Virus record (IMG/VR): IMGVR_UViG_3300046522_000750
Strand: one strand, 5' to 3'
Length of the DNA: 64,000 nt
Source: a virus
Lineage: Duplodnaviria; Heunggongvirae; Uroviricota; Caudoviricetes
Under the pieces are notes generated by a model. It saw nothing but the letters and a program-made list of their open reading frames with translations. It was not told the origin of the DNA and made no database searches. Position numbers and translations under genes: made by a program. This document shows positions 1,025 through 64,000 of this stretch, piece after piece (the first letter of the stretch is position 1; the number at the start of each line of letters is the position of its first letter).

Positions 1025-2275
1025 TCATCTCTTCTCCAGAATCGACCCCATTTCCTTGATGTTTTCGATGATGTTTTGGAAGTTGGCTTCCATCAGCACA
1101 GGCTTCTTGTCGTCCAGGTTCCAGACGTAGTCAGCGAGCTGGCCTTTGAGGCAGTCATCAGCCGGGCACTTTTGCAGGATGTGGCGGATGATGAAGGCGC
1201 CCATCTCGCGGTTGCCCTTCATGAGCGTAGCGGTGGCCGTACAAGCTTTGTCGAGCAGAGCGTCTTTTTCTTTTTCGATCTGATCGCCTTTGAACTTGTT
1301 GCCGTACTTCTCGTTGATCTTGTCGTTCGCCATGGTGACGTACTGACGCAGCGAGTGAGCCACGGCGTAGATGGCGCCGGCCTGGTTCTTGTCGGATTCG
1401 CTGACATTGTCCCAGCACGATGGATCGTCCATCAGCTGTTGAGCCGTTGGGTAACGGGTCATCATGTCGCAGTAGGTCATCAGCGGGGTTGCCGTCTGAG
1501 AACCGACCAGTGATGCGCAGTAGTCGTGCAGACTTCTGAACAGGATGCTTGGCTCGAAGTTCTGCATGCCGCCCCACTTTTCAACGGTGGAGTTGGACAG
1601 GGTTGTCCACTGACGAGCCGATGGGCCGCGACCCATGGCGTCGAAGCACTTCTTCTTCTCTTCGGCCTTGGTCACTTCCGGTGCGAAGAACATCGGGTTG
1701 GCTACCAGGAAGCCGTATACGACTGGGTCGATGTTGGCGTTCTCTTCGAGCTCTTTCCAGACGTCAAGGCTGGCACGGAATTCAACGTAGTGGCAGCGGT
1801 TGATCAGCGCCGAGCTCCATTGAGCAGCGTAAGCACCGTCAGAAACACCGTTACCGGTGAAGACGATGGCCACGTTCTCGCCCAGTTGGTGTTCGCCGAT
1901 GCGACCGAACTGTGCGATTTCGAGCAGGGCGCTCTGTACGCTCGGGTCAGCAGCAGTCACGTCGTCGACCAGCAGAACGCCGTAACCTTTGCCGATGTTG
2001 GTCTCGAGCAGAGCCATCAGGCTGGATTCGGTGATTGGCTGAGCGATCTGCCAGATGCCGGTTTTTTCGTCCTTCTCCGGGATCGGATAGGTCGTAAAGT
2101 CTTCCTTGGTCTTACCGGCTGCTGCGATACGCGCAAACGGTTCGTCAGGGTTGTTACGCAGGCTCATCGCGGCGTGCGTTTTACCGGCGCCTGGTGGGCC
2201 ACCCAGGATCAGGGGAGTAATACGACCATTTTGCTGTCTCGACAGCATGTCATAGTTAAGACTGGTGCCACTCAT
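1025..2275 (-). CDS. AAA+ ATPase (MoxR/AAA_5-like)
   Basis: Walker A GPPGAGKT, Walker B-like LLVDD, sensor TGN, ALINR arginine finger, PSARQW. Confidence 0.88.
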   Translation of the reverse strand: MSGTSLNYDMLSRQQNGRITPLILGGPPGAGKTHAAMSLRNNPDEPFARIAAAGKTKEDFTTYPIPEKDEKTGIWQIAQPITESSLMALLETNIGKGYGVLLVDDVTAADPSVQSALLEIAQFGRIGEHQLGENVAIVFTGNGVSDGAYAAQWSSALINRCHYVEFRASLDVWKELEENANIDPVVYGFLVANPMFFAPEVTKAEEKKKCFDAMGRGPSARQWTTLSNSTVEKWGGMQNFEPSILFRSLHDYCASLVGSQTATPLMTYCDMMTRYPTAQQLMDDPSCWDNVSESDKNQAGAIYAVAHSLRQYVTMANDKINEKYGNKFKGDQIEKEKDALLDKACTATATLMKGNREMGAFIIRHILQKCPADDCLKGQLADYVWNLDDKKPVLMEANFQNIIENIKEMGSILEKR

Positions 2276-8505: not shown

Positions 8506-8582
<77 letters not shown>

Positions 8583-8595
8583 AGTTATGTCAATA

Positions 8596-8703
8596 TGGTG
8601 CAGAAAGGGGAGAGTTGAACTGCCCGACCTCTTACTAAATTCGCCAAGCTGGGGGAGTCAGGGCAAATTCAGACAAGCGCTCTAAACACTGAGCTATTTC
8701 CGC
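8596..8703 (-). ncRNA. tRNA-like RNA with a 30-nt expansion of the anticodon arm (possibly tRNA-Phe(GAA)-derived)
   Basis: Acceptor GCGGAAA/TTTCTGC-A-CCA, D stem GCTC/GAGC, T loop TTCAACT; a 37-nt hairpin replaces the 7-nt anticodon loop. Confidence 0.8.
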
Positions 8704-8719
8704 ATAAAACCTTTGAATC

Positions 8720-8793
<74 letters not shown>

Positions 8794-8798
8794 GAAAC

Positions 8799-8873
8799 TG
8801 GTATTGCTAACATACGTGAGCCACAGAAGTGGAATTGAACCCCTTCTCCGCCCCAACTGAGGCTCACGTATGC
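8799..8873 (-). ncRNA. Anticodon-less tRNA-mimic candidate
   Basis: 12-bp perfect stem CATACGTGAGCC/GGCTCACGTATG enclosing D-like TCAGTTGG and T-like GGTTCAATTCC; 3' tail ends in ACCA. Confidence 0.55.
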
Positions 8874-8904
8874 ACACTGCTTACGGACAGTGAATCGTTT
8901 TAAT

Positions 8905-8981
8905 TGGCGCTCCCGGCAGGACTCGAACCTGCGACCATCCGCTTAGAAGGCGGATGCTCTATCCAGCTGAGCTACGGAAAC
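8905..8981 (-). tRNA. tRNA-Arg(TCT)
   Basis: GTTTCCG...TCCGC-CTTCTAA-GCGGA...GTTCGAGTC...GGAGCGCCA, 77 nt. Confidence 0.95.
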
Positions 8982-10405: not shown

Positions 10406-10427
10406 CTCGAATTCCTCTGCATTGAAC

Positions 10428-10446
10428 GGTATGTTTGCAGTATACC
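10428..10446. promoter_or_regulatory. Operator A overlapping a minus-strand -10 (TATACT)
   Basis: GGTATgtttgcagtATACC. Confidence 0.8.
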
Positions 10447-10641
10447 GTAAATTGAGGCTCATGCCAAACAAATAAACCCATTGGCAGACTGCTTAGGTGG
10501 GAAAACCGTATACATTTCCCCTCGCCACAAGCAGGCGGCTCACTCACGCGCTTCATTTCAAGCCTTTTGAAAGCAGAAGGCCCGCACATGGCGGGCCGTC
10601 AAGCGTATACATTCACATGCATTTTTACATGCAAATGAGAA

Positions 10642-10791
10642 TCATTGACAAGCTTCGCAGTCAGGATTCTCCAATGAGCATGCCAACGGCACGCCTTGGG
10701 CTTCAACGTCGAGCAGGAAGTCATCGCCTTCCTGATCTTCTACTGCTGGCTCATCCCAGCTCATTACGGGTGCTGCTGCTTTCTCTGACAT
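10642..10791 (-). CDS. 49-aa mini-protein resembling the NrdA C-terminal redox tail
   Basis: Hand translation MSEKAAAPVMSWDEPAVEDQEGDDFLLDVEAQGVPLACSLENPDCEACQ; GAGGA RBS; below the ORF-track cutoff. Confidence 0.85.
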   Translation of the reverse strand: MSEKAAAPVMSWDEPAVEDQEGDDFLLDVEAQGVPLACSLENPDCEACQ

Positions 10792-10890
10792 GGTGATTTC
10801 CTCTGAAATATCGCTGCAAGAATTACATGATAAGGGCTGCGTCGACGTCGATGCAAGCTTGTCAATTTGCAGTTAAGTGTTGACATTATG

Positions 10891-10909
10891 AGTATAGCAT
10901 AAACATACT
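10891..10909. promoter_or_regulatory. Operator A
   Basis: AGTATagcataaacATACT downstream of TTGACA. Confidence 0.75.
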
Positions 10910-10998
10910 GTTGACTGAAATTTGTAGCAGGGAAAGGGATCAACCCCAACAAATCAAGCCTGGCTCAGTCAGCATTTTACATTTGGGAGGGTCATACA

Positions 10999-37779: not shown

Positions 37780-38227
37780 ATTGATCGAACAGTACAAGAG
37801 CGCCTTCAGCAAGGCCCACCCCGGCCATGATGCCCCGGTGATTACCTTCGACAATGGCAGCTTTCGCTTTAAGGAGCGCGGCGAACACCTGACCACGCTG
37901 AGCGACAAAGACCTGGCCCACAAGTGCAACGAACTGGTCAAGCTGGTCAACAACCGTGAGTTCGACCTGAGCACACTGTCCGGCCTGGCAGCGGCTACCG
38001 ATCAGGCTTACCGTGCCAGCCAGGTGTATTTTCGCGAACATATCGCACCGCGCCTTAACGCGGTCACGAACCTGGAAGAATTCAAAGCGCTGAAGTCCGA
38101 GATCTGCATGGGCTGCGCTGGGCCAAATGGCTTCATGCTCCCCCTGCCACCCGAGTTCGATCTGCACTTCATGATGAAGCTCAGCGACCTCAAGCACTTT
38201 GCCCGCGAAGCGGATAAGGCCCTCTGA
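37763..38227 (+). CDS. Hypothetical protein
   Basis: P-ELIE-Y-SAF---P----PVI shared with 37567. Confidence 0.75.
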   Translation: MKSPNELIEQYKSAFSKAHPGHDAPVITFDNGSFRFKERGEHLTTLSDKDLAHKCNELVKLVNNREFDLSTLSGLAAATDQAYRASQVYFREHIAPRLNAVTNLEEFKALKSEICMGCAGPNGFMLPLPPEFDLHFMMKLSDLKHFAREADKAL

Positions 38228-39054
38228 TGAAATCCTCGACCCTCTGCGCCAAGACCCGGCAGCTTGACCAATACTTTACCGCCGCTTGGGTGGCCGAGGC
38301 ACTGGTGCGCAAGCACTTCAGCGACCTGACGGCCAATGATCTGGTGTGTGAGCCCATGTGCGGCCCTGGGCGCTTTCTGGAGGCGATCCCGGCGCATGTC
38401 CCGGCCATGGGGATCGAGATTGACCCTGTGCAGGCACAGCTCGCCAGAGAGCGCACTGGAAGGCAGATCATCACCGGCGACATTCGCGACGTTGAGATCC
38501 CCGGCCAGCCCACGCTGTTTATCGGCAACCCTCCGTTCAAGACCGCGCTGTTTGACCTGTTCCTGGCCAAAGCTGATCAGGCCATGGCCATGGACGGACG
38601 CGTTGGCATGATCCTGCCGACTTACTTCTTCCAGACGGCCAGCCGTGTGTCTCGCTATAACGAGCGGTGGAGCCTGTACCAGGAAATGATCCCACGCAAC
38701 ATCTACCCCGGCCTTGAGAAGCCGCTGTGCTTTGCAATCTTTCGAAAAGACGCCAAGCGCCTGCTGGTGGGTTTCAGCCTGTTCCATGAACAAGCCTTTA
38801 TCAACCAATTGCCAGAGGACGTTCAAGAAGCTTTGGTGCAGGGCCGGTCGACCTGGCCGGATCTGGTCTTGGAAGCCCTCGACACCTTTGGCGGTGAGGC
38901 CGACTTGCCGCAGATCTACGAGTACGTGAGCAACCGTCGACCCACGGAAAACCCGAACTGGAAGGAACAGGTGCGCAAGATCTGTCAGATCAGGACGCAT
39001 CGGGTCGGTCGAGGCCGCTACGCGAAGGGGGCGAACTCCTCAGTGGCAGCCTGA
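38227..39054 (+). CDS. Orphan DNA methyltransferase (N6-adenine, gamma-type motif order)
   Basis: DQYFT, EPMCGPGRFL (motif I), GIEID, GNPPF (motif IV). Confidence 0.85.
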   Translation: MKSSTLCAKTRQLDQYFTAAWVAEALVRKHFSDLTANDLVCEPMCGPGRFLEAIPAHVPAMGIEIDPVQAQLARERTGRQIITGDIRDVEIPGQPTLFIGNPPFKTALFDLFLAKADQAMAMDGRVGMILPTYFFQTASRVSRYNERWSLYQEMIPRNIYPGLEKPLCFAIFRKDAKRLLVGFSLFHEQAFINQLPEDVQEALVQGRSTWPDLVLEALDTFGGEADLPQIYEYVSNRRPTENPNWKEQVRKICQIRTHRVGRGRYAKGANSSVAA

Positions 39055-51894: not shown

Positions 51895-52269
51895 TTAGGC
51901 AGCTTGAACCCAGCTTTCAACCACGTCGGCGCCGAACTGTTCTTTCCAGCCCTTCAGGGCTTTGTGGTTGCCACCCTTGGTTTCGATGACCTCGCCGTTG
52001 TGCGGGTTCTTGTAAACCTTGACGGTGCGAGCGCGGCGGGTTTTCTTGCCACCGGCAGCCTGGGTGCGAGCACCGGTAGCCAGTTCTGGGCACAGTTCCA
52101 GAGCCATTTCACGGCGGGAGATGCCACGGGCATCGCATTGTTCAGTGATCGACTTGAATACTTCCATGTGCGCTTGAACTTGTGGCTGCAGCTCTTGGGC
52201 GCGAGCGGTCAGCTCAGCGATGGAAGCTTCCAGTTGACGCAGTTCGTGTACTTTAGAAGTGGTGTTCAT
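51895..52269 (-). CDS. mvaT: MvaT/MvaU-family H-NS-like nucleoid protein
   Basis: RRARTVKVYKNPHNGEVIETKGGNHKALKGWKEQFGADVVESW is the MvaT DNA-binding domain. Confidence 0.92.
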   Translation of the reverse strand: MNTTSKVHELRQLEASIAELTARAQELQPQVQAHMEVFKSITEQCDARGISRREMALELCPELATGARTQAAGGKKTRRARTVKVYKNPHNGEVIETKGGNHKALKGWKEQFGADVVESWVQAA

Positions 52270-52563
52270 TTGGTCATCCTCGACAGCGTTGGTTAGTTAG
52301 GCTTAGTGCCTTGTTGTGTGAGATGAATATAAGGCTTAATTGCCAGAGTGTCAAACGCCTTTTTTCAAATAATTCAGCTTTTTTAGTTTAAACCGCAAAC
52401 TAACTACGAGTTGCTCAAAAAACAATCAAACTACTTTTTTGTGGACAAAAAAAAGCCCCTGTTACGGGGCTAGGCACTTGAGTTATCTCAGGCAAAAGCT
52501 CGGGGTAGAGCTAAATCTCGTCCAACGCTAATGAACGAAGTCTTGGCGGGCATAACAAGGGTG

Positions 52564-53935: not shown

Positions 53936-54325
53936 TTAGGCAGCAGCGGTGGTGTCGGCGGCAGCTTTTTCAGTGCCTTTCGAGCCCCACTTGGTGATTT
54001 CCTGAACCACGATGCCTTTGTTGACGAACTGCTTTTCCACGCCTTCGCGGGTCTTGCCAGTGCGTTTCTGGCCGGTTTTCAGCTTGCCTTCCAGTTCCAG
54101 AACGCGGCCCTTGTTCAGGCGCTCGGTCAGCTTGACAGCTTTACCCTTGGCAGTGAACACCGAGCAGTTGTGGAACTGGGTGTTTTCTTTCTGATTGCCG
54201 TCCTTGTCGGTGTAGCTGTCGGAGGTCAGCAGGGTGAAGTTGACCACGTCCTGGGTGTCGCTCACGGAGCGCAATTCACCAGCTTTTACAACCAGACCAG
54301 CCAAAAGAATCTTGTTCATGTTCAT
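53936..54325 (-). CDS. ssb: Single-stranded DNA-binding protein lacking the acidic C-terminal tip
   Basis: MNKILLAG...ELR...VVNFTL-TSDSYTDKDG--KENTQFHNCSVF...L-KG----LEGKL-T. Confidence 0.85.
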   Translation of the reverse strand: MNMNKILLAGLVVKAGELRSVSDTQDVVNFTLLTSDSYTDKDGNQKENTQFHNCSVFTAKGKAVKLTERLNKGRVLELEGKLKTGQKRTGKTREGVEKQFVNKGIVVQEITKWGSKGTEKAAADTTAAA

Positions 54326-54411
54326 GTTCCTCGCGTTGGATTTGTGTGCCGCTGATTGGTTTTCATCAGCTAACGGTTAAGAGTATACGTTTGAGATACT
54401 CGTTCTGTCAA
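54326..54411 (-). repeat. Duplicated ssb promoter/leader, copy 1, with operator A (54382-54400)
   Basis: Near-identical to 55427-55490; TTGACA-18-TATACT. Confidence 0.85.
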
Positions 54412-54923: not shown

Positions 54924-55421
54924 TTAGTGCGAAAATGGAATATCGTCGTCGAACGAATCGAAGTCCGGCGCCGGCTGCGGAGTGACGTGTGCTTGTTGCT
55001 GAACACCAGCGGCACCCGCTTGATCAGCACCAGCTTCACGTACCGGGGTGTCGTCGCCAGCGGTGGCAACAGTGGCGTTCTTGCTGCCGGTCAGTTGCAG
55101 GTCGAACTGGCTGCCGATTTCCAGCAGGGCACTGGCGTAGACCACGCCGTCTTTTTCGTTCTTCTCGGTGATTTCCGGGTAAACCAGCTTGCCGATGGCC
55201 AGTACTGGTTGACCTTTCGAGAAGAACTCGATGGATTTGTCGAACTGGCCGAACTTGCCCCACAGGGTGGCGTCGACGAATTCAGCAGGACGTGGGTTGC
55301 CGTCTTTGTCCTTGCCTTCGTTGCAGGCAATGGTCAGCGCCATGAATTGACGGTCGCCAGCGGCGTTGGTGTGAAGGGTTGCGGCTTTAGCCAGGTTGCC
55401 TGCAGCAATAAAACGGTTCAT
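54924..55421 (-). CDS. ssb: Single-stranded DNA-binding protein with an acidic tail
   Basis: MNRFIAAGNL...F-D-TLWGK...KG-PV---GKL; C-terminal DFDSFDDDIPF-SH. Confidence 0.88.
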   Translation of the reverse strand: MNRFIAAGNLAKAATLHTNAAGDRQFMALTIACNEGKDKDGNPRPAEFVDATLWGKFGQFDKSIEFFSKGQPVLAIGKLVYPEITEKNEKDGVVYASALLEIGSQFDLQLTGSKNATVATAGDDTPVREAGADQAGAAGVQQQAHVTPQPAPDFDSFDDDIPFSH

Positions 55422-55426
55422 GTTCG

Positions 55427-55512
55427 TGTTCCTCGCGTTGGATTTTGGTGCCGCTGATTGGTTTTCATCAGCTAACGGTTAAGAGTATACGGAGCGCATA
55501 CCCTACTGTCAA
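55427..55512 (-). repeat. Duplicated ssb promoter/leader, copy 2, with operator A (55484-55502)
   Basis: GTTCCTCGCGTTGGATTT..GTGCCGCTGATTGGTTTTCATCAGCTAACGGTTAAGAGTATACG. Confidence 0.85.
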
Positions 55513-62863: not shown

Positions 62864-64000
62864 TTAATCCCAGGTCAGTGCACCACCGGTTTGGTACTCG
62901 ATCACGCGGGTCTCGAAGAAATTCTTCTCTTTCTTCAAGTCCATGATCTCGCTCATCCACGGGAATGGGTTGCCAGCGTCGGCATACTCTTCCTTCAGGC
63001 CGATCTGAGCCAGGCGACGGTTTGCGATGAACTTGAGGTAATCCTCCATCATCTGGGCATTCATGCCGAGCACACCGCGTGGCATGGTGTCCCGAGCGTA
63101 CTCGATCTCAAGTTGGGTGCCTTCCAGGATCATCGTCCTGGCCTCGAGCTGAGCCTCAGCCGTCCACAGGTGCGGGTTTTCGATTTTGATCTGGTTGATC
63201 ACGTCGATACCGAAGTTCAGGTGCATCGACTCGTCGCGCAGGATGTACTGGAATTGCTCAGCCACGCCTTTCATCTTGTTGCGACGACCCATCGACAGGA
63301 TCTGGGTAAAGCCGCAGTAGAAGAAAATACCTTCGGTGACACAGTAGTAAGCAATCAGGTTCTTCAGGAGAAGGGCATCTTTCTCCGGAGTCCCGGTGGT
63401 GAAGGTCGGATCGGTGATCTCACGCATGTACTTGATGCTCCACTCGGCCTTCCTCGAGATCGAAGGAATTTCGTGGTACATGTTGAAGACCTCACCTTCG
63501 TCCAGGGCCAGCGACTCAACGCAGTACTGATAGGCGTGGGTGTGGATCGCTTCTTCGAAGGCCTGGCGCAGGATGTACTGGCGGCACTCTGGGTTGGTGA
63601 TCAGGCGGTAAACAGCCAGTACCAGGTTGTTGGCCACCAGCGAGTCTGCGGTAGAGAAGTATCCCAGGTTGCGCATCACGATCCGACGCTCATCATCGGT
63701 CAGCCCTTCAGGGTCTTTCCAGAGCGCGATATCGTGGTTCATGTTCACTTCTTGCGGCATCCAGTGGTTGGCACAGCCGTCGAGGTACTTTTGCCAGGCC
63801 CAGTCGTACTTGAAGGGTACGAGCTGATTGACGTCGGCCTGAGCGTTGATGATCTGCTTTTGACTGACGTGAACGCGGCCTGCAGAGGCATCGCCCAGTT
63901 CATTAGCGCTATCCACTTCCAGTCCTGCGATACCCGCCACCACGCCATCGGCCTCAGCACCAAGACCTGACTGTGGTGCTTCTTCATCCCAACTCAACAT
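62864..64000 (-). CDS. nrdB: Class I ribonucleotide reductase beta subunit
   Basis: [27 protein letters not shown] (radical Tyr), [26 protein letters not shown]; Pseudomonas-type MLSWDE start. Confidence 0.96.

Follow-up and report, generated by a model that had tools for sequence, protein, structure and literature searches.

The 49-codon ORF and its local signals

The stretch of DNA analyzed here (64,000 nt in full, referred to below as the window) carries short ORFs only, together with three tRNA genes. At its right end lies nrdB, encoding the beta subunit of a class I ribonucleotide reductase (RNR), and 52 kb downstream of nrdB is an ORF of 49 codons. The features of these two loci, all on the minus strand, are as follows.

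10642..10791 (stop included), minus strand: 49-aa ORF (P0001), whose translation reads as a free-standing NrdA-type C-terminal redox tail
10799..10803, minus strand: Shine-Dalgarno-like GAGGA, 7 nt upstream of the ATG, read from the sequence
10885..10914, minus strand: predicted sigma-70-like promoter (9/12 match), from a consensus scan only
10569..10597, minus strand: intrinsic-terminator-like hairpin (7 G-C pairs, loop of 5) with a T-rich tail
62864..64000, minus strand: nrdB, beta subunit of the element's class I RNR, from its translation; 74-80% identical to four megaplasmid NrdBs

The small ORF translates exactly as quoted in an earlier note on this DNA, and the good ribosome-binding site claimed there corresponds to the GAGGA, which is unchanged in five metagenomic relatives. 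The predicted protein carries a hydrophobic-S-W-D-E motif at residues 10-14, an acidic linker containing D-F-L at residues 24-26, and three cysteines (Cys38, Cys45, and Cys48) in a C-x6-C-x2-C spacing that ends two residues from the C-terminus. Its counterparts in related plasmids are annotated as "hypothetical protein." The region upstream of the ORF is a divergent intergenic region that is nearly invariant among relatives; the terminator-like hairpin begins 45 nt past the stop codon and is kept in the relatives L005 and L006 although the flanks vary. Since it has a promoter-like site, a divergent position, and a terminator-like hairpin, the ORF looks monocistronic, which suggests a small transcription unit.

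An 11-nt motif (G/A-AATGTATACG) occurs in two copies around the hairpin, at 10507-10517 and 10604-10614 (minus strand), and nowhere else in the 64-kb window; two copies were reached in 3 of 100 shuffles, and both are conserved in L005 and L006. A third palindrome, containing GTATAC (10426-10448), overlaps the -10 element of the next promoter-like site. These sequences may be putative operators.

Translation of nrdB also confirmed what had been read at its two ends (MLSWDEE at the start and GGALTWD at the end), i.e., a hydrophobic-S-W-D motif at the extreme N-terminus and a hydrophobic-T-W-D motif at the extreme C-terminus. The closest solved structure to this NrdB is 6Y2N.

Affiliation of the window with pMPPla107-family megaplasmids

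A tblastn search against plasmids found the small protein in four Pseudomonas megaplasmids of 0.90-1.17 Mb, namely, the FeN3W plasmid, pPL1 of P. silesiensis, pMPPla107, and pBASL58, and the 49-aa protein is also carried on metagenomic contigs, one of them recorded at 1.13 Mb. The window also has the following features.

1025-2275, minus strand: ATPase-like protein of 416 aa (phrog_1297, E 3e-37)
8506-8981, minus strand: three tRNA genes (Arg-CCT, Gly-TCC, and Arg-TCT), ~1.7 kb downstream of the small ORF
38227-39054, plus strand: protein with weak DNA-methyltransferase and helicase-associated PHROG matches
51898-52296, minus strand: MvaT/MvaU-like nucleoid protein gene, syntenic with annotated genes in three megaplasmids
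53939-54376 and 54927-55478, minus strand: two SSB-like genes, syntenic with annotated genes in three megaplasmids

By translated comparison, the window and the megaplasmids have a gene order in common that runs from nrdB through a hypothetical gene, two SSB genes, an MvaT-like gene, the small ORF, and a 68-aa gene to tRNAs. Judged from this shared order, the window is part of a pMPPla107-family Pseudomonas megaplasmid (~1 Mb) and not of a phage. Its GC content (0.49-0.57, ~0.53 overall) and its tRNA genes fit this family, whose members have a GC content of 52.8-55.4% and dozens of tRNAs (PMC6482414). A phage origin was considered and rejected, given the synteny with megaplasmids and the lack of any DNA match among 50,697 phage records; the only peptide matches in the phage collection were NrdA tails of mislabelled Acinetobacter contigs. 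In pMPPla107, pBASL58, and pPL1, tRNA-containing stretches lie at the same relative position as in the window.

The distance between nrdB and the small gene is greater in the window (52 kb) than in the relatives (13-30 kb) because ~40 kb of extra small ORFs are inserted. This stretch (~11000-51800) lies between the MvaT-like gene and the small ORF, which are ~2 kb apart in pMPPla107, and consists mostly of small ORFs without a family; relatives of some of them are scattered in pPL1. In pMPPla107, nrdA is located at ~30 kb, nrdB at ~142 kb, and the small gene at ~160.6 kb, with similar spacing in the other three megaplasmids, so that nrdA lies ~110 kb from nrdB in the relatives and ~130 kb from the small gene in pMPPla107. 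The RNR genes being so dispersed, the earlier expectation that nrdA would be found just beyond position 64000 is probably wrong.

The gene downstream of nrdA in pMPPla107 is RecJ-like, and no endonuclease is annotated beside the small ORF in the related plasmids. A single thioredoxin-family protein of ~110 aa (E about 1e-30), but no glutaredoxin, is encoded by each of the megaplasmids (4/4, W01-W04). A search for NrdR boxes, which recovered the P. aeruginosa nrdA box as a positive control, gave none near the small ORF or most of the plasmid nrd genes; no NrdR-box regulation common to these genes was detected.

The small protein is a conserved homologue of the NrdA tail

An exhaustive phmmer search over 1.84 billion representatives returned eight further small proteins (42-68 aa, E 9e-10 to 7.5e-4) with the same architecture: a variable N-terminus, a hydrophobic-x-W-D/E motif, an acidic linker with D-F-L, then V-P-x-A-C-S, and finally C-x2-C, which sits two residues from the end in an alignment that includes the plasmid copies. 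In these family alignments the W, D, and L are invariant or nearly so, the three cysteines are invariant across 16-17 members, and 24-29 residues separate the W from the first Cys throughout. One member, P0015, has no W-D motif, possibly due to a miscalled start on its 1.4-kb contig. Word-index searches with the 49-aa protein returned itself or no match, and a pattern scan of GTDB, which was saturated by NrdA tails, yielded no small ORF; a profile search over genomes was used in its place (see below).

The tail portion of the family corresponds to the last 25-30 residues of Pseudomonas/Acinetobacter-type NrdA, over which the small protein is homologous to the class Ia tail (residues 930-963 in the P. 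aeruginosa structure 5IM3). The likeness to an NrdA tail goes beyond coincidence. Among 177,635 PDB sequences, the only match was 5IM3_A 947-963, the last 17 residues of P. aeruginosa NrdA, and four family members searched against NCBIfam matched only the last 21-27 positions (939/945-965) of the NrdA model NF005544. By tblastn, the small protein is 56% identical to the end of Acinetobacter NrdA over 32 aa. The Pseudomonas NrdA ending given in the earlier note is correct for the P. putida group. No Pfam family matched the small protein at E ≤ 1. AlphaFold2 with the family alignment predicted a single 7-residue helix at a pLDDT of 64, as would be expected for a flexible tail.

An 83-codon frame in a gammaproteobacterial MAG (L076, 2887-3135) corresponds to the last part of an NrdA with its tail and lies near a contig end. 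The same MAG also encodes a full NrdA (L028), and the frame is probably a frameshift or fragment that falls outside the small-protein family.

The family resemblance raises the question of whether the ORF could be a decaying, functionless remnant of the nrdA 3' end, perhaps fused to the nrdB 5' end. Its small size, its distance from nrdA, and its chimeric appearance, with an NrdB N-terminus joined to an NrdA C-terminus, would all suit a remnant. However, start, stop, and length have stayed intact in at least nine lineages despite divergence to 43-70% identity, and none of the three cysteines varies. Nei-Gojobori estimates of dN/dS for the two informative close pairs are well below 1 (0.12 for the window versus L005 and 0.06 for L005 versus L006), which indicates purifying selection; values for distant pairs are 0.1-0.5, with dS saturated. 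The ORF is also conserved beyond all of the surrounding DNA, the FeN3W plasmid being alignable at the DNA level to a 4-kb query only over the small ORF. The drifting nrdA fragment that the earlier note had named as the fallback outcome is rejected by this conservation and the dN/dS values, and we regard a functionless remnant as highly improbable.

The NrdA proteins that accompany the small gene lack a tail

Class Ia NrdA ends in a flexible tail whose cysteine pair shuttles electrons from thioredoxin or glutaredoxin to the active site; in E. coli NrdA these are Cys754 and Cys759. We checked the NrdA proteins of five related replicons (pMPPla107, pBASL58, pPL1, the FeN3W plasmid, and genome G286), and in all five the protein stops 2-3 residues past the LNAV motif, without the redox tail. 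The four PLSDB megaplasmids with the small gene have a single class I nrdA each, all of them tail-less, and G286 carries the small ORF and a tail-less nrdA on one contig. By comparison, the chromosomal NrdAs of G058, G286, P. aeruginosa, and Acinetobacter are 28-45 residues longer and reach the Cys tail; for P. aeruginosa and Acinetobacter the extension past the megaplasmid end amounts to 34-45 residues. An alignment of the pMPPla107 protein with the 963-residue NrdA of P. aeruginosa is colinear up to residue 929 (71% identity), and the plasmid protein retains the cysteine pair of the active site, the motif of the radical cysteine, and the YY pair.

When a profile built from the tail-less NrdAs was searched against the database, the 23 top-ranking clusters (882-890 aa) were tail-less without exception, and many of them are on contigs of 0.3-1.28 Mb; the next 97 clusters, from Pseudomonas chromosomes (955-971 aa), were all tailed and end in C-x2-C. 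Two tail-less NrdA clusters could be paired with small-protein clusters by equal longest contigs (395,644 and 903,019 bp), and for the pair at 903,019 bp, the NrdA and small-protein records are both from P. aeruginosa. In a quick maximum-likelihood tree whose root is not established, a branch with an SH-aLRT of 100 separates the tail-less NrdAs from the rest, and branch lengths within the tail-less group greatly exceed those within the chromosomal Pseudomonas NrdAs. Judged from this single branch and its deep internal divergence, the tail-less state is old and has been maintained.

The profile search over GTDB recovered the small ORF from 1 of 67 members of one Pseudomonas genus and from 2 of the 401 Pseudomonadaceae genomes sampled. 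Both positive genomes encode a tail-less NrdA on the contig of the small ORF as well as a tailed chromosomal NrdA. In this sample the small gene is confined to genomes with the megaplasmid-type NrdA, and every chromosome has a tailed NrdA. The earlier note had proposed that the gene be followed by tBLASTn for conservation and co-occurrence with nrdAB and that the element's nrdA be inspected for loss of its tail; the gene did turn out to be conserved and to reside in nrdAB-bearing megaplasmids, and the tail was missing in 5/5 related replicons and 23/23 NrdA clusters. The nrdA of the window's own element was not recovered from viral and metagenome collections by an exact NrdB look-up or by exact DNA patterns, and two candidate tail-less NrdAs were traced to other samples and hence are not the window's own; a tail-less NrdA in this element is therefore deduced from its relatives.

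A tail-less NrdA might be served in some other way, by the tail of the host NrdA in mixed dimers or by another reductant, leaving the small protein with a different job, for example, as an adaptor between thioredoxin and NrdB/NrdA, a gating regulator of the plasmid RNR, or a metal- or redox-sensing peptide. Mixed dimers are conceivable because host and plasmid NrdA are ~71% identical, and in normal dimers the tail of one polypeptide serves the other (PMC4078304). A separate job would also suit a gene whose promoter-like site and terminator would allow separate control, and a W-D motif that occurs at the NrdB N-terminus as well. Direct complementation is nevertheless the simplest explanation for why tail loss and a free tail gene go strictly together and why exactly the tail residues are conserved, and we consider a different job unlikely.

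A putative split alpha subunit with a redox arm acting in trans

The comparative evidence, above all the absence of the tail from the cognate NrdAs, favors the earlier proposal of a trans-acting free NrdA redox tail. We think it likely that the alpha subunit of the class Ia RNR of these megaplasmids is split and obtains its redox tail in trans from the small protein; in genetic terms, the enzyme would probably be encoded by three dispersed genes, a tail-less nrdA, nrdB, and the 49-aa gene as the missing tail. Nearly all class I RNRs carry the C-terminal double-cysteine motif (PMC9669993), and the active site is reduced by the tail of the second R1 polypeptide, redoxins having no direct access (PMC4078304), which means that the chemistry already works between polypeptides. 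Since the tail-less NrdA keeps its active-site cysteines and redoxins have no access to them, a substitute relay is needed, and because the only conserved candidate is a free homologue of the missing piece, we read the locus as a split alpha subunit.

Under this split-subunit reading, each turnover would oxidize the active-site cysteine pair of the tail-less NrdA, out of reach of thioredoxin. The small, largely disordered protein would then insert its own C-terminal cysteine pair, reduce the active site by disulfide exchange, and be re-reduced by a plasmid-encoded or host thioredoxin. The hydrophobic-x-W-D/E motif, 24-29 residues ahead of the first Cys, would dock the peptide on the RNR in place of the covalent tether; it resembles both termini of the cognate NrdB. 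Taken as a whole, this scheme of a diffusible "redox arm," a ~50-aa protein that docks through a beta-subunit-like W-D, reduces in trans, and is recycled by thioredoxin, seems to us somewhat better than an even bet. Because the host chromosome already encodes a complete RNR, neither the plasmid enzyme nor, by extension, the peptide has to be essential.

Classically, NrdB docks on NrdA through its C-terminal peptide, which makes a docking role plausible for the W-D motif of the small protein, by analogy a putative docking element on the RNR; the tails of the full-length NrdAs that we read have no W-D motif. If it were used in the NrdB-tail groove of NrdA, the motif would compete with NrdB. The small protein has hydrophobic-S/T-W-D in common with the docking peptide, but its W-D is internal, near the N-terminus, and so lacks the free carboxylate of the NrdB C-terminus; it resembles the N-terminal copy in NrdB more than the C-terminal docking peptide.

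The resemblance to the docking peptide also suits a protein directed against the host. The earlier note had raised a decoy or inhibitor of host RNR or redoxins as its second option, whereby the W-D motif would block the NrdB-tail groove of the host NrdA or the cysteines would soak up thioredoxin. The protein would then act like yeast Sml1 and other small, disordered inhibitors of RNR, and dNTP synthesis would shift to the plasmid enzyme. The protein is indeed small and predicted to be disordered, and acquiring a megaplasmid is known to carry a cost for the host. Inhibition, however, leaves the loss of the plasmid NrdA tail in every case unexplained and has no need for an invariant three-cysteine tail patterned exactly like functional NrdA tails. 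Moreover, the C-terminal motif is common to plasmid and host NrdB, so that blocking the groove would affect the plasmid enzyme as well. We find an inhibitor or decoy quite improbable.

Comparison with known systems

Sml1 is an RNR inhibitor without redox cysteines, and inhibitors of the Sml1/Spd1 type have no sequence relation to the small protein, the only similarity of which is to NrdA tails. In yeast, Zhang et al. (PNAS, 2007) are said to have reported that the R1 C-terminal CX2C tail acts in trans and competes with Sml1. As is proposed for the small protein, the yeast tail reduces the active site of another polypeptide, so the relay need not be intramolecular, but it is still covalently part of the R1 subunit of the dimer, whereas the small protein is free.

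The likeness to NrdA tails lies in the three-cysteine pattern, the extreme C-terminal position, and the predicted disorder, and the small protein presumably shares the disulfide-relay chemistry of the tail. Unlike that tail, it is detached from the catalytic body and has an added N-terminal W-D motif; it is encoded by a gene of its own, with nrdA 110-130 kb away in the relatives. NrdH, glutaredoxin, and thioredoxin are small redox proteins that feed electrons to RNR, as proposed here for the small protein, which by contrast has neither a thioredoxin fold nor a Pfam match and would sit between the redoxin and the active site and not replace the redoxin.

The nearest known counterpart is the naturally split RNR large subunit NrdA-a/NrdA-b of Aeromonas phage Aeh1. 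The split Aeh1 NrdA is functional, with new terminal sequences on the fragments that mediate their interaction and assembly (Crona et al. 2010, PMC3045599) and are conceptually like the proposed role of the W-D motif. The Aeh1 catalytic core is interrupted by a homing-endonuclease gene, with the two halves next to each other (PMC3045599), whereas in the megaplasmids the split falls where the flexible tail begins and shows no evident endonuclease; the two parts are encoded far from each other, and the smaller one is only ~50 aa long.

Implications for class I RNR

We found no description of a split RNR of this kind in the literature and no publication linking pMPPla107 with "ribonucleotide reductase"; the paper on the family lists ribonucleoside-diphosphate reductase among the plasmid genes, with no mention of a split (PMC6482414). 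Of the steps in class I RNR turnover, re-reduction of the active site by the flexible C-terminal tail is the one least understood in structural terms, since the tail is disordered and tethered. A separate 50-residue tail, if true, would make this step directly testable, as concentration, docking motif, and cysteines could be varied independently, and the redox arm would provide a ready-made system for studying how tail and beta subunit alternate at the active site. A free shuttle could also be overproduced, be separately regulated, and perhaps serve or compete at the host enzyme. A feature described as almost universal in class I (PMC9669993) would be able to move to a separate gene and be kept across a deep clade of mobile elements, and a function would be assigned to a "hypothetical protein" conserved in Pseudomonas megaplasmids of approximately 1 Mb.

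The W-D motif at the N-terminus of NrdB

Hydrophobic-x-W-D/E is present at both ends of NrdB in chromosomal P. aeruginosa and Acinetobacter and in all of the megaplasmids (L004, L020, and L016-L019). We know of no described function for the N-terminal copy, and the present analysis highlights this unexplained motif, which is a probable interaction element of Pseudomonas and Acinetobacter NrdB. Because the small protein starts like NrdB and ends as an NrdA tail, it may have arisen when the 5' end of an nrdB was fused in frame to the 3' end of an nrdA, although this is speculation on our part. A Logan contig matching the right end of the window (L007, 7403-7483) stops within the nrdB 3' end, which may be an assembly break arising from similarity to the host nrdB.
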